Assembly (NCBI GenBank): GCA_965220965.1
Contig: OZ244852.1
Coordinates: 864,001 to 928,000, forward strand
Length of the DNA: 64,000 nt
Direction: 5' to 3'
From: Candidatus Marinacidobacterium sp.
GTDB taxonomy: Bacteria; Acidobacteriota; Vicinamibacteria; Marinacidobacterales; Marinacidobacteraceae
Part shown: positions 3,015-30,919 of the stretch, in pieces
How the letters are laid out: each line of letters opens with the position of its first letter
Numbering within the stretch: position 1 is the stretch's first letter
Notes under the pieces: generated by a model
Told to the model about the DNA's origin: nothing
What the model saw: the letters and a program-made list of their open reading frames with translations, nothing else
The model's database searches: none
Position numbers and translations under genes: made by a program

Positions 3015-3044
3015 CGGGCCCTGAGCCCGGACAAGGAGATCTCC

Positions 3045-11060: not shown

Positions 11061-12752
11061 GTGATTCGCGGAGTGTGGAGCGACTTCGGTCGGTGGAAGG
11101 ATGGTTGGGATGAAATCCAGACAGTGGGCGGCGGTGGACAGGGGAACGGTTACCGTGCGCGTCGCCAGTCAGATGGCCGGGAGGCCTTCGTCAAGGTGAT
11201 CAAGTCCAAGCGCGACGCCGAGCGTCGGAGACGCTTCTTTCGCGAGGCGACAGCCTATGACACGGTTCGCAGCAGTGGCGTTCCGCGACTGATCGAGAGC
11301 AACGCCCATCTCCACGAAGCCGCAGAGATCGAGCCGTATATCGCGACAGAGTTCATCGAGGGGCCAACGTTGAGAATCTGGCGGGACGGACGGCATGAGG
11401 TTGAACTCGCCACCGCCCTAAGATTGGTCCGGTCTCTCCTCGCGGCGATCGGCGACTGTCACCACGGCGGTGTCGTTCACCGCGACATCAAGCCAGACAA
11501 CATCATCCTGAGAGGTGGGAATCCGTCCCAGCCTGTGCTTCTGGATTTTGGCCTGAGCTTCAAGGTGACGCAGACCAGTGAGGCCGTGACCGAAGACGGG
11601 CAGGAAATCGGCAATCGTTTTCTGCGCTTGCATGAGCTCTCCGCCGGTAGTCAACTTAAGCAGGATCCCCGGTCGGACTTGTCGTTTGCTGGTGGAATCC
11701 TGTTCTACTCCCTGACGGGCAGGAATCCCGACATCCCAGAGGATGCGGAGGGTCGTCTCCCTCACCAACGGAGGGATGTGCGTTCGCAGCTTCGACACAT
11801 CGCCGGTGAGCGGTTGGAGCGGTTGCTGTCCATATTCGACAGCGCCTTCGCACCAAGAATCCACGACCGGTTCGTGAACGTCGAGGCAATGGTTGCAAGT
11901 CTGGAGAACCTCACGGAATCGCGGCGTGTTGTGGTGGGCACGTTGGATCATGATCGAGACGCCATCCGTGAGGCGTTGAACACTGCGTCGGCACAGCGGT
12001 CATCAGAGAGTCTTGACAGACTCACGCACGCTCTCGAAGAGCTGCATCGAGTTGACGATGAAGCAGCGACGTGGTTGGACTGTCCTCTAACTCTGACACG
12101 AGGCGGACGGCACGTAGATGCCGACTTGGGAAGAAACACTGTGTCCTGGCGTAAGCGAGGAATGACCGACGATGTGTTACGAGTACAGCAGGAGGTCCGG
12201 GAGGTAGGCGGTGAACTCGTCATCAAGCTGTCGGGCGAAGCGGTCTGGCGGACGGCGGTGAACGCACCGACGTATGGAGAGTGCTTTGCCGAGAGAATTC
12301 GGAGATGGCTGGTCGGGAGACTCCGCGAGGCTATCGCGAATCCGGAGGCGCTGCCGCCCGAGGCCAGCTATTTCCAGGAAGAGCCGCCGCTCGGGTCGCT
12401 AACGGAAGCGCAGGAGCGAGCGCGCCGAGAGGACCGCCACGTTCTGGCGTTCGTGTATGACCCGGCGCAGAAGGAGCGCGGCGAACGCGGCAAATTGGAG
12501 TGGTGTCTGAGCAACTTCCTTGAGAACCGCAGGACGCGCGAAACGCTCCGCGCAGCGTTTGTTCTAGCGCTCGTGCCACTGTCTCAAGTAAGTGCGGTCA
12601 CAGACGAGCTCAGTGGCGAGTCGATGGAGACTTCACGCTGGGTCGTCTTTGATGCGGACCTCGCACCCAAGCGGCACGAAGTCATCTATGCGAACCCGCA
12701 GATGGCGGAGAGTCTCGCCGGTGAGCTGTCCGACGAGTTCGGTCGCCGATAG
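11061..12752 (+). CDS. Cytoplasmic Hanks-type Ser/Thr protein kinase with C-terminal putative thioredoxin-like domain
   Basis: GGGGQG loop, FVK, RFFRE, HRDIKPDNI, LLDFG, GNRFLRLHE, DPRSDL. No TM. More A/T-ending codons than neighbours. Confidence 0.85.
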   Translation: MIRGVWSDFGRWKDGWDEIQTVGGGGQGNGYRARRQSDGREAFVKVIKSKRDAERRRRFFREATAYDTVRSSGVPRLIESNAHLHEAAEIEPYIATEFIEGPTLRIWRDGRHEVELATALRLVRSLLAAIGDCHHGGVVHRDIKPDNIILRGGNPSQPVLLDFGLSFKVTQTSEAVTEDGQEIGNRFLRLHELSAGSQLKQDPRSDLSFAGGILFYSLTGRNPDIPEDAEGRLPHQRRDVRSQLRHIAGERLERLLSIFDSAFAPRIHDRFVNVEAMVASLENLTESRRVVVGTLDHDRDAIREALNTASAQRSSESLDRLTHALEELHRVDDEAATWLDCPLTLTRGGRHVDADLGRNTVSWRKRGMTDDVLRVQQEVREVGGELVIKLSGEAVWRTAVNAPTYGECFAERIRRWLVGRLREAIANPEALPPEASYFQEEPPLGSLTEAQERARREDRHVLAFVYDPAQKERGERGKLEWCLSNFLENRRTRETLRAAFVLALVPLSQVSAVTDELSGESMETSRWVVFDADLAPKRHEVIYANPQMAESLAGELSDEFGRR

Positions 12753-16436: not shown

Positions 16437-19028
16437 ATGTCGCAGCTTCGCCGTTTCCGGTTCCGGGTCGCGCTCCTCGCCGTCGCTTCTCTGCTGGTCG
16501 CCGGGTTGGCCGGCGCGCAGGACGCGCCGCCGGCCATCCCGTCGATCGCGGACAAGACCTCCGGCATGACAGCGATCGACGGCTTCGTCCCGCTCCACTG
16601 GGACGAACGCACCGGGAAGATCTACGCCGAGCTGGGTCCGATGGAGGAGGAGTTCCTCTACCAGGTCTCGGCCGGTTCGGGCCTCGGCAGCAACCCGGTC
16701 GGTCTGGACCGCGGCCAGTTGAGCATGACGGCGGTGCTCCGTCCGATGCGGATCGGGCCGCGGGTGCTCCTCATGGAGCCCAACTACCGGTTCCGCGCGA
16801 TCAGCGACAACCCCGACGAGGTCCGCGCCGTCCGCGATGCGTTCGCGCCCTCGGTGCACTGGGGATTCCAGGTGGAGGCCGAGACCGGAGACCGGGTCCT
16901 GGTGGACATGACCGACTTCTTCCTGCGCGACACCCACGGCGCCATCGCCCGGCTGGCCCGCGCCCGGCAGGGGACCTACCGGCTCGACCGCGACCGCAGC
17001 GCCTTCTACCTGGAGAACACCAAGGGCTTCCCCGACAACACCGAGGTCGAGACCCTGCTCACGTTCACTTCGGACAATCCGGGACCGCTCGTCCAGGCGA
17101 CGGCCGCCAGCGGGGAAGCGGTGACGCTGCGCCAGCACCACTCGCTCGTCCGCCTTCCCGGCCCCGGCTTCGAAATGCGCATCGCCGACCCGAGGATCGG
17201 CGTGAACGGCCCGCAGTACATGGACTACGCGACCGCGATCGACGAGCCGATGACCGTCCGGCTCACCGCCCGGCACCGCCTCGAGAAGCGCGATCCCTCG
17301 GCGGAGCGTTCCGAGGTGGTCGAGCCGATCGTCTACTACCTCGACCGGGGCGCTCCCGAGCCGATCCGGAGCGCGCTCCTCGAGGGGGCCCGCTGGTGGA
17401 ACGAGGCGTTCGAGGCGGCCGGCTTCATCGACGGCTACCGGGTCGAGGTCCTTCCGGAAGGCGCCGACGCCCAGGACGTCCGCTACAACATGATCCACTG
17501 GACGCACCGGCGAACTCGCGGCTGGTCCTATGGCGGTTCGGTCCAGGACCCGCGCACCGGGGAGATCATCAAGGGGAACGTGAACCTCGGGAGCCTGCGG
17601 CTGCGGCAGGACCACCTCCTCGGGGTCGGCATGGTCGCGCCGTATGTCGGGGGCTCGGGCGCCGCGCCGGCCGGCCACGACCACGGGATGCACGGCCTTC
17701 CGCCGGACCCCGGCGGCCCGCACTCCTGCGGCCTCTCCGCGACGCCGGGATTCGGGTATCTGGCGCAGATCAGCCCGGACGCCGACCCGGTGGAGCTGGC
17801 GCTGGCCCGCGTGCGGCAGCTCTCCGCCCATGAGGTGGGCCACACGCTGGGATTCCCGCACAACTACATGTCGTCCACCTACGACGGCCGCGCCAGTGTC
17901 ATGGACTATCCGGCGCCGCTGGCGACGCTGGAAGACGACGGGACGGTCTCGCTGAGCGACGCCTACGGCGTCGGCGTGGGCTCCTACGACATCCTCTCGG
18001 TCCGCTGGGCCTACGCCCACGTCCCGCCCGCCGAGACTGCGGCCACGCTCGACCGGATCATGCAGGAAGGGCTCATGGCGGAGACCCGGTTCATGGCCCA
18101 CACCGACAACTACATCGGGGCGGGCGCGCACCCGCTGGCCTCCGTCTGGGACAACGGCGGCGATCTGGTCCGCCACCTCGGCCGCGAGATCGACATCCGG
18201 CAGGCGGGTCTGGACGCCTTCGGCGAGCGCGTGATCCGGGTGGGCGAACCGATGTCACGGCTCGAGCCGGTTCTGATGCCGCTCTATCTCCACCACCGCT
18301 TCCAGATGAAGGCGGCGATGAACACCATCGGCGGGCAGGAGTACTACTACGCGGTCCGGGGCGACGGGCAACGCCCGGTGAACGCCGTCCCCGGCGACCG
18401 CCAGCGCGAAGCCCTTGACACCGTCCTGAGGACGCTCGACACGAGCTTCCTGGCCCTTCCGAGGCGCATCGTCGAGATGATCCCCCCGCCTGCCTACCGG
18501 GAGCGGGGAACGGAGACCTTCGACGGGCACACCGGCGTCGTCTTCGACCCGCTGGCGGCGGCGGACACTTCCGCCGACTACACCGTCGAGCTGCTGCTCC
18601 ACCCCGAGCGGATGGCGCGGCTGGTGAACAACCACGCGCTCGACCCGGACCAGCCCGGACTGAGCGAGGTCCTCGACCGGCTCACAGAGGCCACCTGGGG
18701 AGAGGACGAGCCGGATGACACCTACCACCGCGCCGTCCAGGACGCCGCCGAGCGCAGCGTGCTGAACGGGATGATGCGGGAAGCGCTGAACCCGGACAAC
18801 CCGGCGCGCGTTCGCGCCGTCATCGAGGACCGGCTCGTCGCCCTCGGAGAGAGCCTGGGCGAGATGGACGACCGCAGCCCGCACGAGGAGCTGGCGTGGA
18901 TGGACATCGACCGCTTCCTCGACCGGGACGACAGTCTCGACCCCAACGCCCGCCGTCCGGCCCTCCCGCCGGGCTCCCCCATCGGCGGCGCCTCGGCGTC
19001 AGGGGAGCGCATCCACCCGGGCCACTGA
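16437..19028 (+). CDS. Secreted zinc-dependent metalloprotease (DUF5117/DUF4953, EcxA-like)
   Basis: Signal peptide; EPIVYYLD, WNEAFEAAGF, DPRTGEIIKG, HEVGHTLGFPHN, Met-turn SVMDYP. Confidence 0.88.
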   Translation: MSQLRRFRFRVALLAVASLLVAGLAGAQDAPPAIPSIADKTSGMTAIDGFVPLHWDERTGKIYAELGPMEEEFLYQVSAGSGLGSNPVGLDRGQLSMTAVLRPMRIGPRVLLMEPNYRFRAISDNPDEVRAVRDAFAPSVHWGFQVEAETGDRVLVDMTDFFLRDTHGAIARLARARQGTYRLDRDRSAFYLENTKGFPDNTEVETLLTFTSDNPGPLVQATAASGEAVTLRQHHSLVRLPGPGFEMRIADPRIGVNGPQYMDYATAIDEPMTVRLTARHRLEKRDPSAERSEVVEPIVYYLDRGAPEPIRSALLEGARWWNEAFEAAGFIDGYRVEVLPEGADAQDVRYNMIHWTHRRTRGWSYGGSVQDPRTGEIIKGNVNLGSLRLRQDHLLGVGMVAPYVGGSGAAPAGHDHGMHGLPPDPGGPHSCGLSATPGFGYLAQISPDADPVELALARVRQLSAHEVGHTLGFPHNYMSSTYDGRASVMDYPAPLATLEDDGTVSLSDAYGVGVGSYDILSVRWAYAHVPPAETAATLDRIMQEGLMAETRFMAHTDNYIGAGAHPLASVWDNGGDLVRHLGREIDIRQAGLDAFGERVIRVGEPMSRLEPVLMPLYLHHRFQMKAAMNTIGGQEYYYAVRGDGQRPVNAVPGDRQREALDTVLRTLDTSFLALPRRIVEMIPPPAYRERGTETFDGHTGVVFDPLAAADTSADYTVELLLHPERMARLVNNHALDPDQPGLSEVLDRLTEATWGEDEPDDTYHRAVQDAAERSVLNGMMREALNPDNPARVRAVIEDRLVALGESLGEMDDRSPHEELAWMDIDRFLDRDDSLDPNARRPALPPGSPIGGASASGERIHPGH

Positions 19029-19038
19029 GCGGCTCACG

Positions 19039-19070
19039 GGACCTCCCGGAGCCAAGACTCCGGGAGTTCC
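19039..19070. terminator. GC hairpin between convergent genes, possible bidirectional terminator
   Basis: CTCCCGGAG (19043-51), loop CCAAGA, CTCCGGGAG (19058-66) is a perfect 9-bp inverted repeat, extendable by GGA/TCC. No long U tract. Confidence 0.45.
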
Positions 19071-19101: not shown

Positions 19102-22100
19102 CTATCCGCGGGATAGCGCCTGTTCGATCTCATTCAGGGCGAATTTGCGGTTCAGGTGTGGGTGCAGCCACTGATTCCGATAACTCCTGAGGCACCCATA
19201 GCAGCTCGCGTCGCAACCGCAGTCGCCGCGCACACGCGTTCGCGCAAGTTCCAGCACGAGGCGGAAACTCTCCCTGTTGGTGAGTTGGCCTACGAGTCCA
19301 GCGCCGCCAGGAACATCGTCGTAGAGAACCACTCCGTCCACGGTAAGGGTGACGTTCAGGTCGCGTTCGGGGACGGCAACGGCATCGGCAGCTCCATGGA
19401 GAAGCGCGTACCCGAGCGAATACCGAACCCACTTCTGGCGCCCCGGCAGCTCAACCTTGACCACATCTGTGACAAGCTCGTGACCCAACGCGTAGCTGGA
19501 GAAGGTACCTCGGCAGGGACGCCCGTCCGCTGTCTTGTGGCCGCGCGCCCGTGGGTTCGCGTCGTGTAGTCCGCAGTCCTCGCACAGCAAGAAGTTGCGC
19601 TGACCCTGACCCTCACAGAGAACCACTAACCTGCCTGGCAGAGCCTCTGCGACATCGAGCCCGAAGAGTCTCTTCTTGTGGGCCTTGCGCGCCCCAGCGG
19701 AATACCCCTGGAAGAACGGCTTCGTCGTATACTGACGGCGCGGTCGGCGCACCGGAGGGCGTGGGTCGGTCTGGAGGTCGGTAGTAAAGCCCCAACGTGG
19801 GACGAGATAGCGACCTGAGTACTGTGCACCTTCCTCCTTCTCCGCGTCATTTGAGGATTCGAAGGCGCCCTCCTCGTTCCAGAAGTACCAGCGGACGGTG
19901 GGAGCCTGCCCCTCGACCCTCCGAATACCCACAGACTTCCACTCCAGCTTGTCGGCGACTACGCTGCTCCCAGGCGCGTATTCGGCAAGCGCGAGTGAGA
20001 GATCACGGTCGAGCTCTATGTTCTGGCCATTCTTGGTCGCTCCCGTTTGCAGCTCGACCACATCCACCGGAAATCCGTATTTTGGGATGATGGCGTGTCG
20101 CGCCAGAAACGAAATCGCCATCTCCCGCTCCATCGCGTTCAATCGGTCCTCCAACCGATAGCGCCTCCTTCGTTCAGTGCGAGTGGCATTCAGATCCGCC
20201 AGGATCCGTTCGATCTGAAGATACTCGGCGCACCGATCGGCGACGGCGCGGGCGAGTCTGCTCTCGCTCCCGGTAAGCCGTCGAACCCATTTCTGTCCAT
20301 CGACCCCGACGCTCTCCCGCAGCGTCGCCGGAACGACGTCGTGCAGGACTCGCGGCAGCGCGTCGTCGTTGCGGCAGAACTCGCCGAAAGCATCACACAC
20401 ATCGGGGTGTCGCCAGTCCTCGCCAATGAAATCCTTGACTCGTCCGGCGCGAATACGATGCGCCGGCTGCCGGAAGAAGTGTGATAGGGCGACCGCGGTC
20501 ATGTGCCTTTGGACGATCTGAGGATTTGTCAGGCGAAGGATCGGCGGTCGGACCCGACCAGAGATCATCTCCTGCTGATGTCGGAAGTAGTGGAGGTCAT
20601 GGGAGTTGCGGCGACAGTAGGTGACGGCAAGACCTGCCTTCCCCCGCCGGCCGGCGCGGCCGACTCGTTGTGTGTAGTTGAACGGTTCGGGTGGCACGTT
20701 ACGAAGAAACGTCAGGCGAAGATCACCGAGGTCGACACCGACTTCGAACGTAGTGGACGAACTGAGCAGGTGCACCCGATCCCGCTGAAAATCGCGCTGG
20801 ACGCTGCGCGCTTCCTCCGGAGTCAACTGCGCTGTGTGTTCGGCCGTTCTGAAGTCTGCTGGAAGGTCCGATGCGAGGTAGAGGCGTCGGTAGTGGTTGT
20901 CCTCGTGCGTGCTCTTCACCCGACCGAGTCGTCCCGTGCAGCGAGGACGGGGACAGAGGCCGCGAAGGGCTATGGCAGTGACCCGGTCGCACCTACGACA
21001 CCGCCAGAGGTCGGATGACGAGGCCGGACGGACACGGAGCCACTCGGCGCGCAGCCGGAAGCCGTTAGTCCTGCGATCGATGGACAGGAGAGCGGCGCTG
21101 GACGAGCGTCGCGACTGAGCGACGAGGTGATCCCAGACACGAACCATCACATCTTGGGCGGCGAACACGGGGTCCGTCTCACCATTGACTAGTTTGGGAA
21201 GATAGTCGCGAACAAGGCCGCCCTGCGGTGAGCCCCACTGGCGCAGATGACGGCGTCCGTGCGGACGATCTTGGCTGAAGGCGAGTTGGGGCCTCTCTGG
21301 CTTTATGACGGACCACGTGGGCAGATCCGGATCGGTGGAGGGCAGCTCCACCGCGTCGTTTCTGAGGAACTCGGCGAGCAGCAATTGCAGGAGCGCACTG
21401 GCCTCCGCCGGGTTCAACCGCCAGGGAGTCTCCTGGAACACTGGCGGGAGATTCATGCCCGGAGGCAGTGCGACATGCCAGCGGCAGAGGCCGACCCCCG
21501 CCAGCGACAGCCGCGTGTCATCGGTCACGGCTTCACGAAGCACTGCCGCATAGGCATCTCTGTAGCGCTGTGCTCCAGTCTCCGACGGTGCGTGAACCCC
21601 CAGCTCCGACCGGACTCTCTCGAGTCTCTGCGCGAGATCGGCCACGGACAACTCGCAGTGACTCGCGCCACGCGGTGAAGCCTTCTGTCGAAGGGCGCGG
21701 AGCAACAGGTTGCGCGTGAGCAGAGTCCGGTAGGAGTCCTCCGCATACCAAGCAAAGAAAGCTGCGTCCTGTCGGCTATCCGCGAAGGCAAGGATCTTCT
21801 TCTCATCCTCGGGAAGAAACCGGTGCATGGCCGTAGCCAGAACGGCGTTGGGGGCGTCGGCGCCGTGGACGATCGCCTGAACGGGATCGCCAACGCCACC
21901 TCGGCTGTAGCTACAGACCGCGCACCTCTTCAGTTGATCCCGGTACTCCGGTTGCTGTCGGTTCTCACTCCGTTCAACACGGATCGCCGCTCCACAGCGG
22001 CACGTCAGCTCGTCGCTCAGCGCACCGCAGATACGGCAGAGCAGAAGGGAACCCTCCTCGGCGGGCAGGTAGAACTCGACCCCGAACTCCTCGCGCGACG

Positions 22101-23358
22101 GATCCCGGCAGGCTTCCAGGAGGAACCCTCCGGTACGGCGGCCAACGTAGTAGTGCTGGCCACACTCGCGGCACAGCGCTATCTCGATATAGGCCGACTT
22201 GCCAGCCTCATCCCCGACATGACCGCGGTTCAGCGTGACCCGGTCCTGCCCATGATGGTGATGCAGGAAAGCGCCTTCAAGCGCCCTTGCAAACACGTGG
22301 TAGCGACGTACGTGCGCACTCGTCCTGGCCCGTGTAGTGTCCTCCTGACCGAAGATCACGCACTCGGGAGCGAAGGGCTCACCGAACAGGGCACTCGCAA
22401 ATCGAGCCACGGATGCCCGAGCATCGGCATCGTGTGTCGACGCGATGGTGGCGCTCGTGGCGACGCATCGAAATGACCCCGACCGGCCGCCTCGCCGCAG
22501 TCGATTCGTGAGACGGCGCAGCAGCATCGCCATCTCGATCCCCCTTGCACCGCGATACATGTGCGCCTCGTCGAGGACCAGAAACCGCCAGTGAGCGGCC
22601 CGGCCGGCATCGAACAAAGGGCTGTCATCCGGCCGGAGGAGCAGATGCTCGAGCATCGAGTAGTTGGTAAACAGAAGGTGCGGCGGCCGCGCCCGCATAT
22701 CCTCGCGGAATACTGTTTCGCCGGGGAGCGCGCTCTCAGCGCGCGCGCGACCGTGCCGGCGTCGGTCTCTGATGTTCTCCGGTGTCTGCCCGATGTACTG
22801 TCCAAAGGAGAATCGGAAGTCGGAGCGGTCCGCAGCGAGGTTGCCGCAGAGCGCGCCGATCCGCTCGCGCTGGTCGTTGACCAGGGCGTTCATGGGATAG
22901 AGAACGAGGGCGCGGACGCCGGGGTCGCCCAGCGTGCCGGCCAGGTGTTCTCCGTAGAGGGAGAACAGAATGGGATAAAGGAAGCACTCGGTCTTCCCGC
23001 TGGCTGTGCCGCTCGCCACGGCGATGTTGGACTGTGCGAACGCGCTCTGTCGAATGGCCTCCTCCTGATGTGCATAGAGCGCGCCGGAGTGCAGAGCAGG
23101 TAAGAGCGCGCCTGCCCGGCCAGGAAACGCCGCCTCGGCGAGAGCGGGAGCCTCGACCCCGAGCCGAAAATACCGGCCGTATTCCGGAACAGGTTCGGTG
23201 ACCAGTGTGCCCTCGGCTTCGAGCGCGGTGCGGAAGGACTCGCGTAGTTGGGGATCTCGGAAATGGAAAGATGTTGTGAGGTACCTGAGGTAGCTCGAAC
23301 GCAGACGTCGGACCCACCCGGCGATCTCCGCGTCGGAATGGGGTTGGGTGACGCTCAT
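19102..23358 (-). CDS. DEAD/DEAH-box SF2 helicase with multiple Zn fingers and C-terminal DUF1998 (Druantia DruE / MrfA-like)
   Basis: LYAHQEEAI, GTASGKTE, LYPMNALVNDQ, TNYSMLE, LVLDEAH, ATSAT, AFADSRQDAA, EHTAQL, TTFEVGVDLG, QRVGRAGRR, LYDDVPGGAG and CGCDASCYGCL. Start placed at ATG 23358 (MSVTQPHSD) because the longer ORF overlaps the upstream gene. Confidence 0.9.
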   Translation of the reverse strand: MSVTQPHSDAEIAGWVRRLRSSYLRYLTTSFHFRDPQLRESFRTALEAEGTLVTEPVPEYGRYFRLGVEAPALAEAAFPGRAGALLPALHSGALYAHQEEAIRQSAFAQSNIAVASGTASGKTECFLYPILFSLYGEHLAGTLGDPGVRALVLYPMNALVNDQRERIGALCGNLAADRSDFRFSFGQYIGQTPENIRDRRRHGRARAESALPGETVFREDMRARPPHLLFTNYSMLEHLLLRPDDSPLFDAGRAAHWRFLVLDEAHMYRGARGIEMAMLLRRLTNRLRRGGRSGSFRCVATSATIASTHDADARASVARFASALFGEPFAPECVIFGQEDTTRARTSAHVRRYHVFARALEGAFLHHHHGQDRVTLNRGHVGDEAGKSAYIEIALCRECGQHYYVGRRTGGFLLEACRDPSREEFGVEFYLPAEEGSLLLCRICGALSDELTCRCGAAIRVERSENRQQPEYRDQLKRCAVCSYSRGGVGDPVQAIVHGADAPNAVLATAMHRFLPEDEKKILAFADSRQDAAFFAWYAEDSYRTLLTRNLLLRALRQKASPRGASHCELSVADLAQRLERVRSELGVHAPSETGAQRYRDAYAAVLREAVTDDTRLSLAGVGLCRWHVALPPGMNLPPVFQETPWRLNPAEASALLQLLLAEFLRNDAVELPSTDPDLPTWSVIKPERPQLAFSQDRPHGRRHLRQWGSPQGGLVRDYLPKLVNGETDPVFAAQDVMVRVWDHLVAQSRRSSSAALLSIDRRTNGFRLRAEWLRVRPASSSDLWRCRRCDRVTAIALRGLCPRPRCTGRLGRVKSTHEDNHYRRLYLASDLPADFRTAEHTAQLTPEEARSVQRDFQRDRVHLLSSSTTFEVGVDLGDLRLTFLRNVPPEPFNYTQRVGRAGRRGKAGLAVTYCRRNSHDLHYFRHQQEMISGRVRPPILRLTNPQIVQRHMTAVALSHFFRQPAHRIRAGRVKDFIGEDWRHPDVCDAFGEFCRNDDALPRVLHDVVPATLRESVGVDGQKWVRRLTGSESRLARAVADRCAEYLQIERILADLNATRTERRRRYRLEDRLNAMEREMAISFLARHAIIPKYGFPVDVVELQTGATKNGQNIELDRDLSLALAEYAPGSSVVADKLEWKSVGIRRVEGQAPTVRWYFWNEEGAFESSNDAEKEEGAQYSGRYLVPRWGFTTDLQTDPRPPVRRPRRQYTTKPFFQGYSAGARKAHKKRLFGLDVAEALPGRLVVLCEGQGQRNFLLCEDCGLHDANPRARGHKTADGRPCRGTFSSYALGHELVTDVVKVELPGRQKWVRYSLGYALLHGAADAVAVPERDLNVTLTVDGVVLYDDVPGGAGLVGQLTNRESFRLVLELARTRVRGDCGCDASCYGCLRSYRNQWLHPHLNRKFALNEIEQALSRG

Positions 23359-23407
23359 CGATCCGTGGCGCGGAGCATCCGATCGCAGACCCGGGTCCAG
23401 GCGTGCC

Positions 23408-25957
23408 TCATCGGGACGTGAGGGCCCGAAGGGCCGCGACGGCGGCGTTGACGACGTGGGCGCGGGACCCGATGGAACGAACGCGAATGCTTCGGATGCC
23501 TGCGGTCTCCAAGAGCGCCCGTAGACGGCCACGGGCGTGAACGCCCGAGTCGGCGCTCGCGGGCCGCAGCAGAAGGCGCGAGGAGCCATAGGCGCCAACC
23601 GTGGCGCGCGGAATGGTGTTGTGGGAGATCGGGACGACGAACAGGGCGCGTCGAGCCCGATGCTCGGCCCGGGCACATGCTCTTCGAGGTGTGCTCTCGC
23701 ATGCGCGTCCGACGCCGAGTCGGCCGTTGCGATCACCCACGGCTACGAGCGCCACGAATCGTCGGTGTCGAGGCGCTACGGCCCGCCGTGAGAGCGGTCG
23801 GAGCGTGAGAAGGCGAGGGGTCAGCGCCGGTGGAGATTGGGAGGGGGACGGGTGGGAAGGAAGTTCGAGGAGGAGTGCCGGCAGAGTGTGCGAGCCAGCC
23901 CGTAGCCTGAGTTCCCCGGACGCTGGCTCGGATTGGACAGAGAGGAGGTCGGCGAAAGAGCCCAGCGGAATCGAGACGGCCGTCTTGTGCGGAAACTGGG
24001 CAGCAAGGCCACTGTCGGCCTCGTGGCGGTAGCGTCCGGGCTGACCGTCAGCGAAGGCCGCCTCGATCGTCCGCTCCGTGGGTGGCGCCAGAACCTCCAG
24101 TGCGGCGTGTCGCCGATAGGTTCGGCGAAGCGGTCGTCGCTCCCAGCAGGAGTCACCCGCCATCCGCCACCAGAGGCGCGGCAGATCCAGGACAATCGGG
24201 AGGCTGTCGTCGCCGTCGCGCAGTTCAAGGCGCACCCGATCGGTCTTGGGGGAGTACGGCACCCGCGCCTCTCGAGTGCGAACGGCCACATCGCGCGTGC
24301 CGGTGTTGAGCTGCAGCGACCGACCATGGCTGTCTTCGATCGTGATGTAGTCCTCGTCGCGGTCGTCTGGCAAGAGGAGTCGGAGACCCTCGAATGGCAG
24401 TCCGTTCACCAGAATCCTCTTGAGGCCTGGCCAGTAGCGGAACGTGGTCGTGTCGGCGAGATGAGTGTGGCCGCTCTGATACGTGCGAAGAAAGAACTCG
24501 CCGCGCCTGTTCCCAATGCGCACGGGTGTTGGCTGCTCTGTGAGTTCGAAGTTCTTGCCCTTCCACGGTTCGTCGGCTGGCCCCGCGTGGCGCCCGGCGG
24601 CGCGGGGGTGCTCCTCTCCGACGCGAGCCCAGACTATCCCGGGCGCGGGCCAGAGTCTGGGAGGATCCCCGACGAAGAGCTCATCGTCATCGCTGTCGAG
24701 GACCGTGGTCCCCTCGAGGCGCGCACTCTTGTCGGAGCCGACGGGATAGTCCCCAAGTGTGCCCAGGGAGTCGGCGTCGTCCGAGGGCCGGATTTCGTAG
24801 TGATGACAATGTAGGCTCGGATCCGTGCAGAGCTCCGACGCTCGGAACTTCTGTTGACTGCGCTTCCAATTCGGCGGCGCAAAGGCGAGGAAACGGCCAC
24901 GACGGAGGGTCCGTGAGAGCTCCCCGCGCAGGTCGGGCTCGGTTCCGGAGAGCCTGAAGAAGAGCGGTCTCTGGTTGTCGAACAGCGGAATGTCAAGCGG
25001 ATCTCCGTTCGATGGGAAAAGACGCACGGGCTGCCGCAACCGGGAGAGAAACAGGCGACCGTCCACCAGGTCCATTTCCTCGTTGCCCTGGGTCGCCCTC
25101 TCTATGTTGCGCTCGCGCGGAATCTCGATCACGACGCGCCATCGATTCCTGTGGCGCGTGCACTTCACGCGTACCGGAGGGAGACGCGGCCCGGTATCGC
25201 CGGTGGGGTTGGGGCGGCGCCGGGGACCGATGCGCCGAGGTTCCCCTGGCTGGCGCGGAAGTTCGTAGTCGAGCCGTGCGCGTGAGCGCCTGATTTCTGT
25301 CGCGTGTAGGGTGACTTGTCCAGGGGATTCCCGCCGCTCGTCGGCAGACTCCGCGCCGTCGTTCGACATTGGATCGGGAGGCGAAGAGTGGTCTCGATCT
25401 TCGTCCGCGCGGGCCGTGGACATACTGGCGTCGACGGCCAACCCGGCGCCTCTGGCCGGTCCTGGAGGGGGATGTTGATCGTGATGGCTGTGCGTGCTGT
25501 CCGGAGGACGTCGGAGTGCTTCGCTGGCGTCTGGCTCCGGAGAGTCGGGGGTGCTCTCCGGGAAGTGCTCATGGGCCGGCTCGTCGGTGTCCCCCTCGAC
25601 CAGGGGTGGCTCCTGGACTGAAGAGGCCACTGTACGGACGATGTCTGATGGTGCGTCAGGCGTCGCGCGTTCCAGATCGGGTGGCCGATTGGTCGATTTG
25701 GGCGGCGTCTCGAGGGTCGGCGAGTGGGGGCCGTCAGACACGGAGAGCTGCGGTGCGACGTGCGGCGCCGACGAGGTCTCGGCTTCGGATGAGGAAGGCG
25801 CCGGTGTCTTCTGGTCATGTGGGATCGTCCGGTGCGAGGCGCCCTTCAACGCGCCGTGGGTCCGAACCGCCGGCTCCCGCTCCACGGGAGGTCGCGGCTT
25901 GATCCGCACCCACGCCAACAGGCGCTGAAGCGGCGCGATGAGCCACCGGAAGGCCAT
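23408..25957 (-). CDS. 849-aa helicase partner protein with C-terminal ribosomal protein uS5-like domain
   Basis: AAGGAG upstream of ATG 25957. Amphipathic N-terminus, ~240-aa Pro/Ser/Asp-rich linker, beta-rich middle, PSHPSPSQSPP linker, then FVALVAVGDRNGRLGVG...TIP...G.YGSSRLLLRPAS..SGV.A.G.LRALLETAGI......IGS matching uS5. Confidence 0.8.
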   Translation of the reverse strand: MAFRWLIAPLQRLLAWVRIKPRPPVEREPAVRTHGALKGASHRTIPHDQKTPAPSSSEAETSSAPHVAPQLSVSDGPHSPTLETPPKSTNRPPDLERATPDAPSDIVRTVASSVQEPPLVEGDTDEPAHEHFPESTPDSPEPDASEALRRPPDSTHSHHDQHPPPGPARGAGLAVDASMSTARADEDRDHSSPPDPMSNDGAESADERRESPGQVTLHATEIRRSRARLDYELPRQPGEPRRIGPRRRPNPTGDTGPRLPPVRVKCTRHRNRWRVVIEIPRERNIERATQGNEEMDLVDGRLFLSRLRQPVRLFPSNGDPLDIPLFDNQRPLFFRLSGTEPDLRGELSRTLRRGRFLAFAPPNWKRSQQKFRASELCTDPSLHCHHYEIRPSDDADSLGTLGDYPVGSDKSARLEGTTVLDSDDDELFVGDPPRLWPAPGIVWARVGEEHPRAAGRHAGPADEPWKGKNFELTEQPTPVRIGNRRGEFFLRTYQSGHTHLADTTTFRYWPGLKRILVNGLPFEGLRLLLPDDRDEDYITIEDSHGRSLQLNTGTRDVAVRTREARVPYSPKTDRVRLELRDGDDSLPIVLDLPRLWWRMAGDSCWERRPLRRTYRRHAALEVLAPPTERTIEAAFADGQPGRYRHEADSGLAAQFPHKTAVSIPLGSFADLLSVQSEPASGELRLRAGSHTLPALLLELPSHPSPSQSPPALTPRLLTLRPLSRRAVAPRHRRFVALVAVGDRNGRLGVGRACESTPRRACARAEHRARRALFVVPISHNTIPRATVGAYGSSRLLLRPASADSGVHARGRLRALLETAGIRSIRVRSIGSRAHVVNAAVAALRALTSR

Positions 25958-26273
25958 GCTCAGCCGAGGTCTCCTTGGGTGTGAGTTGGACCCAGCGCCG
26001 CGCGCGCTCCGGCGGCCGAGGCTCTCTTGAAGGGTGTGATCGGTGCGCGCGCCTGTCGTGCGAGATGCGAACCAGCCTCGGCGAAGAGGGACACGGCCCG
26101 ATTATGCGGCAGTCCCTCGTCTGCCGGTCGGCGGTCTGGGCTCCGGCCGGTCAGCCTGATGGACGCACGCGTCCGATCTCCGCCAGCCGCTCAGAGAAGG
26201 CGAAAACTTCGGACCCGACGCCTGCTCCAAATCGGCGCTCACCGCGCGGGGGCGGGCACACAGATGGAGCGCT

Positions 26274-26330
26274 ATGTTCCGCTTGGACGATGGCGAGGCC
26301 ACTGACGTGGACCTGATCAACCAACATTGA
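26274..26330 (+). pseudogene. higB: C-terminal remnant of a HigB/RelE-family toxin
   Basis: MFRLDDGEATDVDLINQH* resembles the HigB ending (F.F.DG.A.DVDL.DYH). The frame is closed upstream at TGA 26157-59 with no HigB-like N-terminus. It lies directly before the higA RBS. Confidence 0.7.
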
Positions 26331-26344
26331 CAGGAGCGGTGACC

Positions 26345-26656
26345 ATGAACCACGCGAGCACCCGGATCGGTCCGATGCGGAACCCGCCGCACCTCGGCGA
26401 GCTCATCTGCGAGAGCATGGACGATCTGGGCTTGAGCGTGACCGAGACGGCGACGCGCTTGGGCTGCGAGCGCGCAACCCTGTCCCGCCTTCTGAACGGC
26501 AAGGCGGCGATGTCGGCCCGCATGGCGCTGGCGCTGGAAGCGATCGGCTGGGGGACCGCCGAACACTGGATGCGGATGCAGGCGAGCTACGAGCTCGCGC
26601 AGGCGCGTCGGACCCGGAGCGCCGCCGGGGGAAGTCCGGCGCCACCTCGGTGCTGA
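26345..26656 (+). CDS. higA: HigA family addiction-module antitoxin (HTH)
   Basis: AGGAG RBS at 26332; MRNPPHLGELI, LSVTETATRLG..RATLSRLLNGKAAMS..MALALE, WMRMQASYEL. Confidence 0.9.
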   Translation: MNHASTRIGPMRNPPHLGELICESMDDLGLSVTETATRLGCERATLSRLLNGKAAMSARMALALEAIGWGTAEHWMRMQASYELAQARRTRSAAGGSPAPPRC

Positions 26657-26725: not shown

Positions 26726-29140
26726 TCAGAAGTTCAGGTCGAGTTCGATTCCGAGCGTCCTCGGGGCGCCGGCTCTCCCGAGGCGGCCGAAGCCAGGGAT
26801 CTCGGACTGCCAGGTCTGGAGCAGGTAGGGCTCGTCCAGCAGGTTCCGCGCGAAGGCGAAGAGTCCCCACGAACCGAACTGGTAGCCCAGCCGGGCGTTG
26901 ACGAGGGTGCGGCCTTCCGCGAGGAACCGGGGGTCGTTGGCCGCGGTGGCGAATGCTTCCGGCTGGGCGGTGAGTTCGGCTCTTCCGGTCCAGACGCCGC
27001 CGAAGCGGTCCTGGCTGGGCGCGCGGTAGAAGGCGCCCGCCGTTGCGGACCACGACGGGGCAAAGGGGAACTCGTTGCCGGTGAGGTCGCGCTCGCTGTC
27101 GGCGAAGGAATCGAACCGGGTCTCGAGCAGGCCCGCGGAGGCGTAGAGCTCGAGGCCTCGGACCGGGTGGTAGCCGGCTTCCAGCTCGGCCCCGGACAGC
27201 GTTGACTCCCCGGCGTTTACGGTGACGTTGTCGACCGGGAGCCCGAGCTGGGTCAGCACCCGGACCTGCTGGTCGGTCCAGTCGGTCCGGAACACGTTCG
27301 CGGCGAGCCGCCAGCGCCGGTCCGGGGCGCTGGCGCGGAGGGCGAACTCCAGGTTGTTCGTGAACTCGGGGTCGAAGTCGCTCGTCTGCGCCGAGAGCAC
27401 GGCGACCGAGCGCCCACCGGCGCGGTAGCCGCGCTGCCAGGAGACGGATGTCGAGAACGTGTCGCTCCACCGCCGGGTGAGGGCGGTCTTCGGCAGGAAC
27501 GCGCCGTAGCTCGCCGAAACGATGTCTTCGGGGCTCGTCTCGCCGGAGAGGCCGGGCAGGACCGGGTCGGAGAGCAGACCCTGGCTGTTCCTCGTCTCGC
27601 GGGTCTCGCGGTCGTAGCGGCCGCCGAGCGTCAGGATCCAGTCCCGCGCCTCGCCGAGGTTGAAGTCGAATTCGCTGTAGACGGCGTTGTTCGTCGTGGT
27701 CTCGCCGGTCAGGAAGAACGCCGTCAGGCTGAATCCCGGCGGGAGGCCGGCGAGCTCGCCAGGCCCGGCGGCGTCGGCGCGAAGGCTGTCTTCGAGATCG
27801 GCGGTGTAGACGCCGATGACGCCCCGCGTCCGTCCGCCCGGATCGACTCGCAGCCGGAGCTCGCCGGTGGTCCACCGGTCGTCGGTCTCGTAATCGAGAA
27901 CGCCTGCCGGGACCGGGGTCTGGTCCAGGTCCTCGCTCTGTCGGAACTCGTGGAAGTAGATGGTTCCGGTGGACTCGAGCGACAGCGAATCCGTCAGTTG
28001 GTAACCCAGATCGATCACGGCCGTCCGGTGCAGTGAGCCGTCCTGCGGTTCGTGATCCGAAAGGTTGAGGCGCTGTTCCGGGAAGAGATCCGCGCTGACC
28101 GTGCTGTCGCCGCCGCGGCTGTCCGACTGCGACAGCGTCACCATCCCCCGGAAGCGGGCCGTGGGATCGAAGCGCAGCTTGGCCCGCAGGTGGAGCGCCT
28201 CGCGGAAGTCGTGCGCCTCGCCGCGGGTCGGGTTCGTGACGAAGCCGTCGCTCACCTGCCGGTCCACCGAGAGGCGCAGCGCCGCGCGGTTCGTGACCAG
28301 CGGGACGTTGACCGCCGCCGCGAGCTGCTGCGAGGCGTAGTCGCCCAGACGGGCGCGCCCCCGGAACTCGGTCCGGTAGGTGGGGTCGCGGCTCGAGAGC
28401 ACGACCGCGCCGGCGAGGGCGTTCCGCCCCTGCTGGGTGGACTGCGGGCCCCGGAACACTTCCACCCGGTCGAGGTCCCAGGTGCTGTAGGGCCCGAAGA
28501 AGGTGCCCTGGTAGCCCTGGACCGCGGCCCCGTCCACCATGGTGGTGACGAGCAGGCCGCTCCCCGCGCCGAAGCCGCCCTGGCTGATGCCCCGGATCGA
28601 GAAGCCGCGACGGTCCGAGGAGGTCGTCAGGTTCGGGACGGTGGCGACGAGGTCGTAGAGGTCGGTGTCGGTCGCGGTGGCGAGGCGGTCGCGGTCGAGC
28701 ACCGCGACGCTTCCCGGCTCGTCACGCAGCGGCCGCTCCTGGATCTGCCCGGTCACCGAGATCTCCTCGGAGAACGCGAGCGACAGGGGAATGCGGATCC
28801 GGACTTCGCCGCCGGCGCCGACGTCGATCTCCACCGTGCGCTCGGCGAAGCCCTCGCGGCGAACCGTGAGCCGGTGTTCGCCCTCGGGGAGGGTGTCGAA
28901 CCGGAAGAGGCCGGCGGCTTCGCTCGTCGTCAGTCGGGTCGTGCCGTCGGCGAGGGTGAGCATGACCTCGGCCCCGGCGACCGCGCCGCCCTCGGGACCC
29001 ACGACCTCGCCGATGATCTCGTTGATCGCGAGGGGAGGCGCCGCCGCCACGCTCCACGGCAGGAGCAGACACGCGGCGGCGGCGAGGATCCGCCGGCGGA
29101 ACCGGGGTTGCGGGGCGAGGGAAGTCGTCGGCTCGGCCAT
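26726..29140 (-). CDS. TonB-dependent receptor with N-terminal carboxypeptidase-regulatory-like domain
   Basis: Start MAEPTT at 29140 with signal peptide; plug motifs FSIRGI and DLDRVEVFRGPQST..GRNALAGAV; RNLLDE.Y; terminal Phe (ELDLNF). Confidence 0.9.
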   Translation of the reverse strand: MAEPTTSLAPQPRFRRRILAAAACLLLPWSVAAAPPLAINEIIGEVVGPEGGAVAGAEVMLTLADGTTRLTTSEAAGLFRFDTLPEGEHRLTVRREGFAERTVEIDVGAGGEVRIRIPLSLAFSEEISVTGQIQERPLRDEPGSVAVLDRDRLATATDTDLYDLVATVPNLTTSSDRRGFSIRGISQGGFGAGSGLLVTTMVDGAAVQGYQGTFFGPYSTWDLDRVEVFRGPQSTQQGRNALAGAVVLSSRDPTYRTEFRGRARLGDYASQQLAAAVNVPLVTNRAALRLSVDRQVSDGFVTNPTRGEAHDFREALHLRAKLRFDPTARFRGMVTLSQSDSRGGDSTVSADLFPEQRLNLSDHEPQDGSLHRTAVIDLGYQLTDSLSLESTGTIYFHEFRQSEDLDQTPVPAGVLDYETDDRWTTGELRLRVDPGGRTRGVIGVYTADLEDSLRADAAGPGELAGLPPGFSLTAFFLTGETTTNNAVYSEFDFNLGEARDWILTLGGRYDRETRETRNSQGLLSDPVLPGLSGETSPEDIVSASYGAFLPKTALTRRWSDTFSTSVSWQRGYRAGGRSVAVLSAQTSDFDPEFTNNLEFALRASAPDRRWRLAANVFRTDWTDQQVRVLTQLGLPVDNVTVNAGESTLSGAELEAGYHPVRGLELYASAGLLETRFDSFADSERDLTGNEFPFAPSWSATAGAFYRAPSQDRFGGVWTGRAELTAQPEAFATAANDPRFLAEGRTLVNARLGYQFGSWGLFAFARNLLDEPYLLQTWQSEIPGFGRLGRAGAPRTLGIELDLNF

Positions 29141-29148
29141 GAACGGGA

Positions 29149-29180
29149 ACGATAAACGGCCGGAACCGGCCCGGTAGAAT
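29149..29180. promoter_or_regulatory. Divergent -10 boxes for the TonB receptor (TATCGT, minus) and coxG (TAGAAT, plus)
   Basis: 8 nt before ATG 29140 and 6 nt before GTG 29187, within a 46-nt intergenic gap. Confidence 0.6.
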
Positions 29181-29186
29181 CGCGCC

Positions 29187-29642
29187 GTGGAAATCAGTGG
29201 CACAGAGATCATCCGGCTCCCCCGGGCCGACGTGTGGAAGAGCATCACCGACGCCGATCTGGTGGCGTCCTGCATGCCGGGCGTCGAGTCCATGAAGACG
29301 CTGGAGCCGAACAAGCGGTTCGAGGTCGTCGGCGGGGTCAAGCTGGGGGCCGCGGGGGTGAAGGCGAAGACCCGGCTGGAGTGGGTCGAGCTGGTCGAGC
29401 CCGAAATGGCCCGGATGTCGCTCCACGGGGCCGGTCCGGGCGTCACCATCGACGGGAGCACGGATCTTCGGCTCCGCGACGTGGACGAGGGCACCGCCCT
29501 CGACTGGACGGCGAACGTCACGGTGCGCGGCACGGTGGCGATGCTCGCCGGGCGACTCATGAAGCCGGTCATGGAGAAGATGAACCGGGAGTTCTTCGCC
29601 CGCATCAAGGAAAAGATCGAACCCGACGGCGCAGCCTCCTGA
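29187..29642 (+). CDS. coxG: CoxG/SRPBCC family protein
   Basis: VWKSITD...VASCMPGVES, V.VRGTVAMLAGRLM, FF. A cox cluster lies 3.6 kb downstream. Confidence 0.82.
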   Translation: MEISGTEIIRLPRADVWKSITDADLVASCMPGVESMKTLEPNKRFEVVGGVKLGAAGVKAKTRLEWVELVEPEMARMSLHGAGPGVTIDGSTDLRLRDVDEGTALDWTANVTVRGTVAMLAGRLMKPVMEKMNREFFARIKEKIEPDGAAS

Positions 29643-29704
29643 GGCCGCCCCTTCGGGCTGACACGGGGCCGCGGGCTTTCGCCCGGCGGCCGGGAGGAAA
29701 CGGG

Positions 29705-30919
29705 ATGAACCTGAAGATCTGGCGCACCGCCGCCCTGGCGGCGCTTTGCGGGCTCGTCGCCGCGCTCGCGTGGGCGCAGCCCACCTACTTTCCCGAGCGC
29801 CACGAATGGGGGACGCAGACCCCCGAGGAGGCGGGCTTCGACGCCGCGGCGCTCCAGGAGGCCGTCGACTTCGCGGTGGCGTCCGAATCGGGCGCCCCGA
29901 GGGATCTCGCGCTGAACCACGAACTCACCTTCGGGAGCGAGCCCTTCGGCAGCCGGGTCGGCCCGACGACGGTCCGCGGCGCGCTCAGCGGGATGGTCGT
30001 TCGCGACGGCTACATCGTTCAGGAATGGGGTCCGGTCCACAAGGTGGACATGACGTTCAGCGTCTCGAAGACCTTCCTGTCGACCGCGGTGGGGCTGCTC
30101 TACGACGACGGCCTGATCGCCTCGGTGGACGACCGGGTCGGCCCCTACATGCCCGATGACGAACTCTTCGGCTCGGACCACAACGCCCCGATCACCTGGG
30201 ACCACCTGCTCCGGCAGACCAGCGACTGGCAGGGGACGCTGTGGGGGAAGCCCGACTGGGCCGACCGGCCGGTCGGAGACCACCCCTTCGAGTATCCCGA
30301 CCGGCCGATGCACCCGCCCGGAACCTTCTACAAGTACAACGATGTTCGGGTGAACCTGCTGGCGCTGGCCGCCCTCCACGTCGTGCGGGATCCGCTTCCG
30401 GTCCTGCTCCGGGAGCGCATCATGAACCCGATCGGGGCCTCGAGCCGGTGGCGCTGGCACGGCTACGAGAACTCGTGGATCATGATCGACGGCCGCAACG
30501 TCCAGTCGGTGAGCGGCGGCGGCCACTGGGGCGGGGGCATGCACATCAGCGCCCGCGACCTCGCGCGCTTCGGGCTTCTCTTCCTGCGGAACGGAAGCTG
30601 GAACGGCGAGCAACTCCTCTCCGAGGACTGGATCGCGATGGCCCGGACGCCGGGCGACGTGAACCCGTCCTACGGCTACATGAACTGGTTCCTGAACGGT
30701 CCGGTGGAGCGGAACGGCGAGATGGTCAAGTCCATCCCGGCGGCGCCGGACACCGCGGTGACCTTCCGCGGCGCCGGGAGCAACATCGTCTACGTGGACT
30801 GGGAGAACGACCTCGTGGTCGTGGTGCGCTGGATCCAGGGGGGCGCGGTCTCCGAGTTCATCGGGAAGGTCCTCGCGGCGCTCGATGACGCGCAGCCGAC
30901 GGACTCCGCCGGACGATGA
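29705..30919 (+). CDS. Secreted serine hydrolase (beta-lactamase class C-like / NylB family)
   Basis: GGGAGG RBS then ATG 29705; signal peptide; SxxK (FSVSKT), ITWDHLL, PGTFYKYND, ARDLARFG. Confidence 0.85.
   Translation: MNLKIWRTAALAALCGLVAALAWAQPTYFPERHEWGTQTPEEAGFDAAALQEAVDFAVASESGAPRDLALNHELTFGSEPFGSRVGPTTVRGALSGMVVRDGYIVQEWGPVHKVDMTFSVSKTFLSTAVGLLYDDGLIASVDDRVGPYMPDDELFGSDHNAPITWDHLLRQTSDWQGTLWGKPDWADRPVGDHPFEYPDRPMHPPGTFYKYNDVRVNLLALAALHVVRDPLPVLLRERIMNPIGASSRWRWHGYENSWIMIDGRNVQSVSGGGHWGGGMHISARDLARFGLLFLRNGSWNGEQLLSEDWIAMARTPGDVNPSYGYMNWFLNGPVERNGEMVKSIPAAPDTAVTFRGAGSNIVYVDWENDLVVVVRWIQGGAVSEFIGKVLAALDDAQPTDSAGR

Follow-up and report, generated by a model that had tools for sequence, protein, structure and literature searches.

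A cassette of two intact genes was analysed in a 64,000-nucleotide (nt) stretch of a Candidatus Marinacidobacterium sp. genome (GenBank assembly GCA_965220965.1, 3.25 Mb in 2 contigs; contig OZ244852.1, positions 864,001 to 928,000 of the forward strand), referred to as the window. Both are encoded on the minus strand: the upstream gene specifies a protein of a large unnamed family, called the partner here, and the downstream gene a helicase related to DruE of the Druantia anti-phage systems (Table 1). An earlier reading of this DNA from its letters alone (the sequence-only reading) had described two co-oriented minus-strand genes 49 nt apart, which agrees with the open reading frames (ORFs) 19102–23358 and 23408–25957. 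At its longest the helicase frame spans 19102–23736, but with the start placed at the ATG at 23358 it encodes 1418 amino acids (aa) that align end to end with homologues and, as the partner gene ends at 23408, leaves the gap of 49 nt.

Helicase and partner protein

By sequence, the helicase is DruE-type. Pfam assigns the DEAD, Helicase_C and MZB (PF09369) domains, all above their cut-offs. The PADLOC check proposed in the sequence-only reading placed seven DruE models on top (E = 1.3e-143 to 2.8e-100), among them DruE1 (1.3e-143), DruE3 (7e-135), DruE2 (4e-124) and DruE4 (7.6e-111), and the DpdJ, SngC, DrmA and BrxH models matched at 1e-20 or weaker. Sequence matches in the PDB comprised 9tu7_Y, a 2108-aa “DEAD/DEAH box helicase” (E = 2.7e-65), 9wae_A (1970 aa, 1.2e-49) and MrfA/YprA (6znp, 1.4e-18). 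DruH and DruE of Escherichia coli, taken from a record in which they lie beside mdtM, served as comparison sequences. The window helicase is 40% identical to this DruE over 237 aa (RecA1) and 25% identical over 676 aa of the C-terminal half, and the alignment stops at DruE residue 1729 of 2114, so that the C-terminal ~385 aa of DruE, the PLD-like region, have no counterpart in the window helicase. Since the helicase ends 28 residues past its MZB/DUF1998 motif, it has no nuclease domain. Besides the motifs in Table 1 it contains SAT at residue 302, QRVGRAGRR at 897 and the cysteine clusters CREC (396), CRIC (441), CRC (453), CAVC (479), CRRC (787), CPRPRC (802) and CEDC (1259); thus every motif listed in the sequence-only reading, which had described a ~1418-aa DEAH helicase with intact motifs, Cys pairs and DUF1998, is present. 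The zinc cysteines are invariant among 33 homologues, and the mean column identity is 68% for these 33 helicases as opposed to 17–20% for the partners.

The partner has a composite architecture. Its first 24 residues, MAFRWLIAPLQRLLAWVRIKPRPP, are followed by a tether of ~235 aa, 88% of which are P, S, T, G, E, D, K, Q, N, R, A or H. The two halves of ribosomal protein uS5 at the C-terminal end are its only Pfam domains; Ribosomal_S5 N scored 36.5 bits (cut-off 27.1) and Ribosomal_S5_C 41.8 bits (cut-off 21.5), with 46.9 bits, again above the cut-off, in a second scan. An AlphaFold2 model of residues 235–849, built from 89 sequences, is all-beta with a predicted local distance difference test score (pLDDT) of ~90 over residues 262–700, whereas the tail, with its shallow alignment, is modelled at low confidence. 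The make-up that the sequence-only reading had given for this gene, namely an amphipathic helix, a long disordered linker, a beta-rich region and a uS5-like domain, is matched by the helix, the polar tether, the all-beta model and both S5 halves. Comparison of the model with the PDB by Foldseek and VIA-align retrieved generic tandem Ig/Fn3 arrays only (best values TM at most 0.16, and Z 8.1 with a root mean square deviation of 20 Å); as the fold libraries may lack DruH, this outcome has no bearing on relatedness to that protein. No PADLOC model matched the window partner, and a protein atlas search with the partner core gave no usable match.

A HMMER search of 1.84 billion representatives recovered the partner family with 2472 matches at E ≤ 0.001, ordinary uS5 proteins included, 637 at 1e-10 and 50 at 1e-30, after a word-index search with residues 260–849, which was too insensitive, had returned the query alone. 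The region common to the family is residues ~235–700, not the tail. A Trp at residues 6–32 is found in 62 of the 89 family representatives with a complete N-terminus, and the stretch before the core has a median length of 203 aa in the 89 representatives. A complex prediction for partner residues 1–45 with helicase residues 1–940 scored 0.00, which is evidence neither way. Eight family proteins that were looked up had no name in any source, and none of the PADLOC 2023 models covers the family. One representative of 1173 aa (P0005) has two tandem copies of the Ig core followed by an eL13-like tail.

Table 1. Genes, motifs and protein regions of the cassette in the window; residue numbers refer to the encoded proteins.
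Feature	Position	Strand	Basis or remark
Helicase gene, 1418 aa + stop, compact, DruE-type by sequence, YprA family	19102..23358	-	Pfam, PADLOC, DruE alignment
Partner gene, 849 aa + stop, member of large unnamed family	23408..25957	-	HMMER family search
Spacer, 49 nt, partner stop to helicase ATG	23359..23407	-	
Ribosome-binding site AAGGAG, ~13 nt 5' of partner ATG	25958..25985	-	Read from sequence
GC-rich hairpin CTCCCGGAG-TCTTGG-CTCCGGGAG, 3' of helicase stop, between convergent genes	19043..19066	-	Sequence reading
Helicase: Walker A/motif I GTASGKT, residues 117–123	22990..23010	-	Invariant in 33 homologues
Helicase: DEAH box, motif II, residues 263–266	22561..22572	-	Invariant in 33 homologues
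Helicase: MZB/DUF1998 zinc motif CGCDASCYGCL, residues 1380–1390	19189..19221	-	Cys invariant in 33 homologues
Partner: amphipathic, basic, Trp-containing N-terminal helix, residues 1–24	25886..25957	-	Sequence
Partner: low-complexity tether, probably disordered, residues 25–260	25178..25885	-	88% polar/small residues
Partner: conserved all-beta core, several Ig-like sandwiches, residues 262–700	23858..25174	-	AlphaFold2, family alignment, fold searches
Partner: copy of uS5 N-terminal (dsRBD-like) domain, residues 715–776	23630..23815	-	Pfam
Partner: copy of uS5 C-terminal domain, residues 788–847	23417..23596	-	Pfam

Exchangeable tails and their origin

The tail is swappable and uS5 only one of its states, so that the uS5 module does not define the system. 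Pfam searches of the 53 top relatives of the partner identified L13e in 30, S5_C in 6, S5 N in 4 and a NusA-like KH domain (KH_5) in 3. Within the last 300 residues of 48 partners from the loci described below, L13e was found 31 times and S2 (E = 3e-93), S17 (4.6e-28) and an SNF2 helicase once each; single partners contained S18 (4.3e-13), S6 (6.6e-25), a TrcR-like helix-turn-helix (HTH) domain or MacB_PCD, and ten partners with other tails had no Pfam match at E ≤ 0.05. A simple motif assigns an eL13-like tail to 107 of 150 representatives, and a PDB search with the family profile retrieved eL13 chains (best 9e6q_AH, 2.7e-9) without other noteworthy matches. Modules are also found ahead of the core: two Thermoanaerobaculia partners contain sigma-70 regions 2, 3, 4 and 1.2 in their N-terminal part. 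These proteins (L081, 5439–9485, and L083, 5850–9791) are ~1300 aa long, with the sigma regions placed before the Ig core and an eL13-like tail in addition. The partner at L078 (6705–11954) is a 1750-aa protein that ends in an SNF2-related helicase with Helicase_C and has a weak NusG-like match (0.0033) ahead of the SNF2 module; the DruE-like helicase still comes after this partner.

Some of the tails were copied from genes of the host itself in the recent past. The tail of the window partner itself can be rejected as the cell's own uS5, since a separate host gene of 187 aa exists elsewhere (G000:C1:2658615) and the two are only 34% identical in the family comparison (33% over 120 aa, E = 8e-16), as against 86–97% among the canonical uS5 copies of the window's family, Marinacidobacteraceae. 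Five relatives in this family have exactly two S5 matches each, one canonical and one fused, and the identity of the fused copy to the genome's own uS5 is 90% in G408, 87% in G412, 55% in G407, 37% in G424 and 33% in G427. For G408, the synonymous divergence (dS) between the two copies is 0.40 and the ratio of nonsynonymous to synonymous divergence (dN/dS) 0.15 (Nei–Gojobori, ~165 codons), compared with a dS of 0.78–1.27 and dN/dS of 0.04–0.075 for canonical pairs between genera; in G407 the fused copy and the own uS5 differ with a dN/dS of 0.27. The alignments behind these ratios are short, and dS values above 1 are saturated. In G401, the uS2 tail of the partner is 93–94% identical at the amino acid level and 96.5% at the nucleotide level to the two other uS2 genes of that genome, one of which is itself joined to an acidic linker and a Cys/His-rich end. 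Tails thus run from fresh, constrained copies to old and strongly diverged ones, with the uS5 of the window at the old end.

Apart from the partner, a uS2 fusion was thus observed in G401, which also harbours L080. At L086 (G401:C1:1941323-1944970) the frame 1345–3504 encodes 720 aa comprising a uS2 nearly identical to that of the host, an extended acidic linker and an end rich in Cys and His (CQICG...H...CGWHH), and the ORF 5' of this frame ends in a paralogous Cys/His-rich domain. Judged by its sequence, this is a second, different protein with a captured host uS2.

Pairing, distribution and genomic setting

Partner and helicase form a fixed two-gene module across phyla. Scanning one genome per species with profile A3 yielded 53 partner loci, all of them in metagenome-assembled genomes, and no family member from a cultured organism was among those found. 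Judging by the record titles, they come from, among others, Terriglobia, Vicinamibacteraceae, Thermoanaerobaculia, Thermodesulfobacteriota, Latescibacterota, Limisphaerales, Binatia, Alpha- and Gammaproteobacteria, Rhodothermales, Oligoflexales, Spirochaetia, Dehalococcoidia/SAR202 and Gemmatimonadota. For A3, one uS5-type protein (P0010), one with another tail (P0038) and seven eL13-motif proteins were aligned. The scan relied on a single pattern, [QNE]G[RH]FF[LIV]RVY, to which some members, the window partner included, do not conform, so that neither the 53 loci nor the tally of their tails samples the tail types evenly. In 49 of the 53 loci tblastn detected a helicase directly downstream of the partner on the same strand, near full length and 45–57% identical in 46 of these 49. 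The incomplete ones are cut by a contig end (L037), broken (L054) or reduced to a ~100-aa fragment (L061). The four loci lacking a helicase are a 2.4-kb contig (L052), two with a truncated partner (L074 and L085) and one with 5 kb of empty sequence downstream (L036). The pair is also present at L003 (G069) and at all five checked loci of the window's own family. The sequence-only reading had named absence of the partner alongside the helicase in other genomes as an outcome that would speak against it, and the two were in fact seen together elsewhere. A conserved third gene was not found among 121 flank ORFs of 18 loci, in which Pfam families recurred at most three times and PADLOC families at most twice. 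Decayed or truncated cassettes, with broken or short partner frames, were observed at L039, L050, L054, L061, L074 and L085; an in-frame stop interrupts the L050 helicase, and the partner frames of L039 and L054 are broken.

The cassette has been acquired and not inherited. Of 24 other family genomes, 6 have a full-length helicase, and neither of two genomes of the same genus has one. These helicases are 51–57% identical within the family, whereas the Met-zincin protein encoded next to the cassette is 77–88% identical, and in the family genomes that carry a cassette it lies far from the Met-zincin gene and at differing positions. G404, of the same genus, has RimK, a spermidine-synthase/TPR protein and a further receptor in the interval between Met-zincin and the orthologue of the TonB receptor. 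Vertical conservation of the pair in a core context, likewise named beforehand as a result that would count against the proposal, was not seen; the distribution among relatives is patchy and non-syntenic. In the phylum, a search of 401 genomes gave matches over the partner core in only two, the window genome and G069. The other 133 of the 135 matching genomes were not counted as containing the family, as they match only positions ~640–810 of the search profile A1, an Ig-like repeat; one of them is the unpublished genome G049, which enters solely through the count of 401. This Ig-like domain, which precedes the eL13-type tails, resembles repeats in large unrelated proteins of these 133 genomes.

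Base composition sets the cassette apart, as the sequence-only reading had noticed from its codon usage: the G+C content at third codon positions (GC3) is 0.72 in the helicase and 0.74 in the partner gene, compared with 0.93 in the Met-zincin and 0.86 in the TonB-receptor gene, and in 1-kb windows the overall G+C content (GC) drops to 0.62–0.68 across 19–26 kb. According to Pfam, the neighbours are a Met-zincin (16437–19028), an HTH protein (26327–26656) and a TonB-dependent receptor (26726–30613). None of the neighbouring genes encodes a methylase, a nuclease or a PLD protein by Pfam, as the sequence-only reading had stated. The hairpin 3' of the helicase stop looks terminator-like by its sequence. 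On the other side, the plus-strand HTH protein is HigA-like (HTH_31/HTH_3), and the end of the preceding frame resembles the C-terminus of a HigB/RelE toxin; this HigB-like remnant, “...MFRLDDGEATDVDLINQH*”, stops immediately ahead of the HTH gene. Frames 5' of the remnant are broken. The region 25958–26656 would fit a decayed higB next to an intact antitoxin gene. Of the insertion site proposed from the sequence, between a metalloprotease and a broken higBA, the metalloprotease is thus established by Pfam, while the higBA part would be consistent with the HigB-like remnant as read from the sequence. Six kb from the cassette, a low-GC stretch (GC 0.60–0.64) contains a lone plus-strand gene (11061–12752) whose 563-aa product includes a Ser/Thr kinase domain (Pkinase, E = 8e-20).

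Relation to known systems and possible function

DruE, ARMADA, BRIGADE and TALON have been described, in the accessible text, as one YprA lineage with inserted zinc modules, accompanied by a separate “Type III-like” (III-B) branch of compact helicases that mostly lack a nuclease (representative GIH50614.1; Bell et al., 2025, PMC12458937). With type III-A Druantia (DruH–DruE of E. coli and Pseudomonas aeruginosa, with PDB 9tu7 for DruE) the window cassette shares the arrangement of two co-oriented genes, a partner followed by a DruE-type YprA helicase, as well as a superfamily 2 core with several zinc modules and MZB/DUF1998. Like the partner, III-A DruH is Ig-rich and much more variable than the helicase. 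Two 2026 preprints report, in the parts available, Ig-like/Fn3-like domains in DruH, of which one states that DruH varies more than DruE and proposes a sensor role (10.64898/2026.05.12.724681), and the other proposes a scaffold role. Further available passages report that type III-A DruH binds single-stranded DNA (ssDNA; 10.64898/2026.05.12.722862) and that in Mycobacterium smegmatis a contact between DruH (1132 aa) and DruE (1667 aa) is required (PMC13316683). However, III-A DruE has ~2100 aa and two C-terminal PLD-like domains that the window helicase lacks, ending as it does so soon after MZB, and the cassette was rejected as type III-A on this ground. Moreover, the window partner has a tether and a swappable tail, neither of which is named in the accessible portions of the published DruH descriptions. 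The partner was also rejected as a DruH of the YjiT family, as PADLOC assigned none of 53 relatives to it and hhalign against E. coli DruH gave a probability of 0.5% (E = 0.12). Given a partner without detectable homology to DruH, the cassette is filed, by sequence comparison, not under type III but as Druantia-like, a variant whose partner is new. Of the Druantia-III-like assignment in the sequence-only reading, the DruE-like helicase in a two-gene module thus stands, whereas the partner does not fit.

Types I, II and IV, the last being defined in PADLOC as DruE+DruF+DruL, were discarded, as Pfam identified no DruA-D, DruM/F/G or DruF/L neighbour and DruA1 occurred once in the 121 flank ORFs. 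The III-B branch comes close in having a compact, mostly nuclease-free DruE-like helicase and one accessory gene; the available text defines it as compact DruE plus “DruH” (10.64898/2026.05.13.724758), with no domains given for that partner, and the comparison with the window pair is one of descriptions only. That the system is undescribed, as first supposed, accordingly holds, as far as the searches reached, for the partner, which has neither a PADLOC match nor a name, but not for compact nuclease-free helicases as such, which are already recognised as III-B in the accessible part of Bell et al. (2025). The main text of that paper, its supplementary tables lying outside the search, does not mention L13e, uS5 or words beginning with “ribosom”, and the literature search found nothing that joins L13e with DUF1998, or an integrated decoy with phage defence and a ribosomal protein. 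MrfA/YprA (6znp) belongs to the same family as the window helicase and shares the OB-CON-MZB canopy and a Cys4 zinc site, but it is a protein of only ~750 aa without the inserted zinc modules, and its companion is the exonuclease MrfB. An MrfAB repair pair was rejected in view of the weak match to 6znp, the lack of an adjacent exonuclease and the patchy, non-core context.

On balance, we lean towards regarding the cassette, from its sequence relationships, as an anti-phage module of the Druantia kind, self-contained in its two genes and acquired by horizontal transfer, with the partner as variable specificity subunit. The helicase would be the conserved motor and effector, with no nuclease domain of its own; by homology to DruE and MrfA, it would load onto single-stranded or 3'-tailed DNA and unwind it in an ATP-driven reaction. 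Its position and variability suggest that the partner replaces DruH as sensor or adaptor, and the end module, as a copy of a host gene-expression protein, may be a bait or docking piece that reads out phage action on that machinery. Several results weigh against the defence module. No integrase, flanking direct repeats or adjacent tRNA were found at the cassette borders in the window; tblastn searches of plasmids and phages with the partner matched rpsE genes only; and the partner core was not found on viral contigs. Helicase searches, which covered plasmids alone, retrieved distant YprA relatives, none covering 80%. None of the sequencing runs listed for this DNA is recorded as RNA, which bears on expression in neither direction. 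The survey for defence-island enrichment suggested in the sequence-only reading showed no clear island at the 18 loci sampled, as many of the flank genes are housekeeping genes and defence matches are scattered (PsyrT-like 2, type I restriction endonuclease 1, type II methyltransferase 1, DruA 1, PDC-S01 1); two DDE transposases were among the same ORFs. It appears very improbable, however, that the cassette has no role in defence and is a repair or housekeeping pair of the MrfA/MrfB kind, or a functionless, decaying remnant in this genome. Membership of the helicase in the YprA/MrfA family, as seen from 6znp and Pfam MZB, flanks without enrichment for defence genes and decayed cassettes elsewhere (L061, L050, L039, L054) would fit this explanation, but the DruE models match ~120 orders of magnitude better than MrfA-like proteins, no MrfB-like exonuclease adjoins, the distribution is patchy and non-syntenic with a foreign GC3, and both frames in the window are intact with all catalytic and zinc motifs in place.

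For the tail we prefer, tentatively and on the strength of the module types, a function as bait or mimic of the host expression machinery. That the partner senses infection through a uS5 mimic and activates the helicase, as the sequence-only reading proposed, is a conjecture, and the window copy is only 34% identical to the host protein. The origins of the modules and the repeated captures from the host favour this reading of a bait as well as a docking function, whereas the predominance of eL13-like tails and the extent to which old copies have drifted speak for a generic nucleic-acid handle, which within the same defence module would hold the ssDNA or the RNA/R-loop arising from unwinding. 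Ribosomal proteins, KH and HTH domains would lend themselves to such RNA/ssDNA binding, but a handle of this kind seems rather unlikely to us. Every identified tail is a nucleic-acid-binding fold, and old tails at 33–37% identity are still open frames above Pfam cut-offs, which would fit a constraint on the fold and not on mimicry; the dominance of eL13-like tails in bacteria points the same way, and the ssDNA binding reported in the accessible part of the III-A DruH study (10.64898/2026.05.12.722862) would agree with it. On the other hand, nearly all identified modules come from the machinery of translation and transcription, among them the RNA polymerase-binding sigma-70 regions 2–4, fresh copies of host genes under purifying selection have appeared repeatedly, and in G401 a second, unrelated protein bears the same host-derived uS2. 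Docking of the partner on the 30S subunit or a coupled RNA polymerase–ribosome, which would let the system monitor translation or transcription directly and bring the helicase to expressed DNA, is a still less probable function. All five bacterial ribosomal modules (uS2, uS5, bS6, uS17 and bS18) are from the small subunit, the others include NusA-KH, sigma-70 and, weakly, NusG-like modules, and fresh copies hardly differ from the host protein and span nearly all of it; yet the five-of-five pattern was noticed after the fact in few cases, the window copy and several others would probably be too diverged for assembly into ribosomes, and we know of no site for an eL13-like segment in the bacterial ribosome. 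Some of these points also count against the bait that we prefer: eL13-like tails are the most frequent type, and eL13 is not known as a ribosomal protein of bacteria; the uS5 copy in the window and others share only 33–37% identity with the host protein; and no PDB match at E ≤ 1 was obtained for at least three tail types (A9, A10 and A11). Moreover, if DruH binds ssDNA, as the available text of that preprint reports (10.64898/2026.05.12.722862), the tail may simply bind nucleic acid as well.

Plant NLR immune receptors carry integrated decoy domains, that is, variable copies of host proteins joined to an immune sensor at its end, which differ among alleles and lineages. There is neither homology nor a common architecture with the window partner, and the likeness is one of analogy. 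By this analogy the partner could be a bacterial integrated-bait sensor, in which host expression proteins are captured time and again on an Ig-like scaffold, and phage factors that hijack or alter this machinery strike the copy and thereby switch on the DruE-type helicase, an idea that we regard as doubtful. Druantia is among the commonest anti-phage systems, and the 2026 preprints, in their accessible parts, are split over whether DruH is an ssDNA binder, a scaffold, a sensor or a nuclease. In the present cassettes, a different, modular-looking partner accompanies the conserved DruE motor, its host-protein end is exchanged among lineages, and the exchangeable tail offers a direct experimental handle on phage range. 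If the integrated-bait model is true, the partner would be a prokaryotic counterpart of the plant NLR decoys, and the types of tail would list the host proteins that local phages attack.

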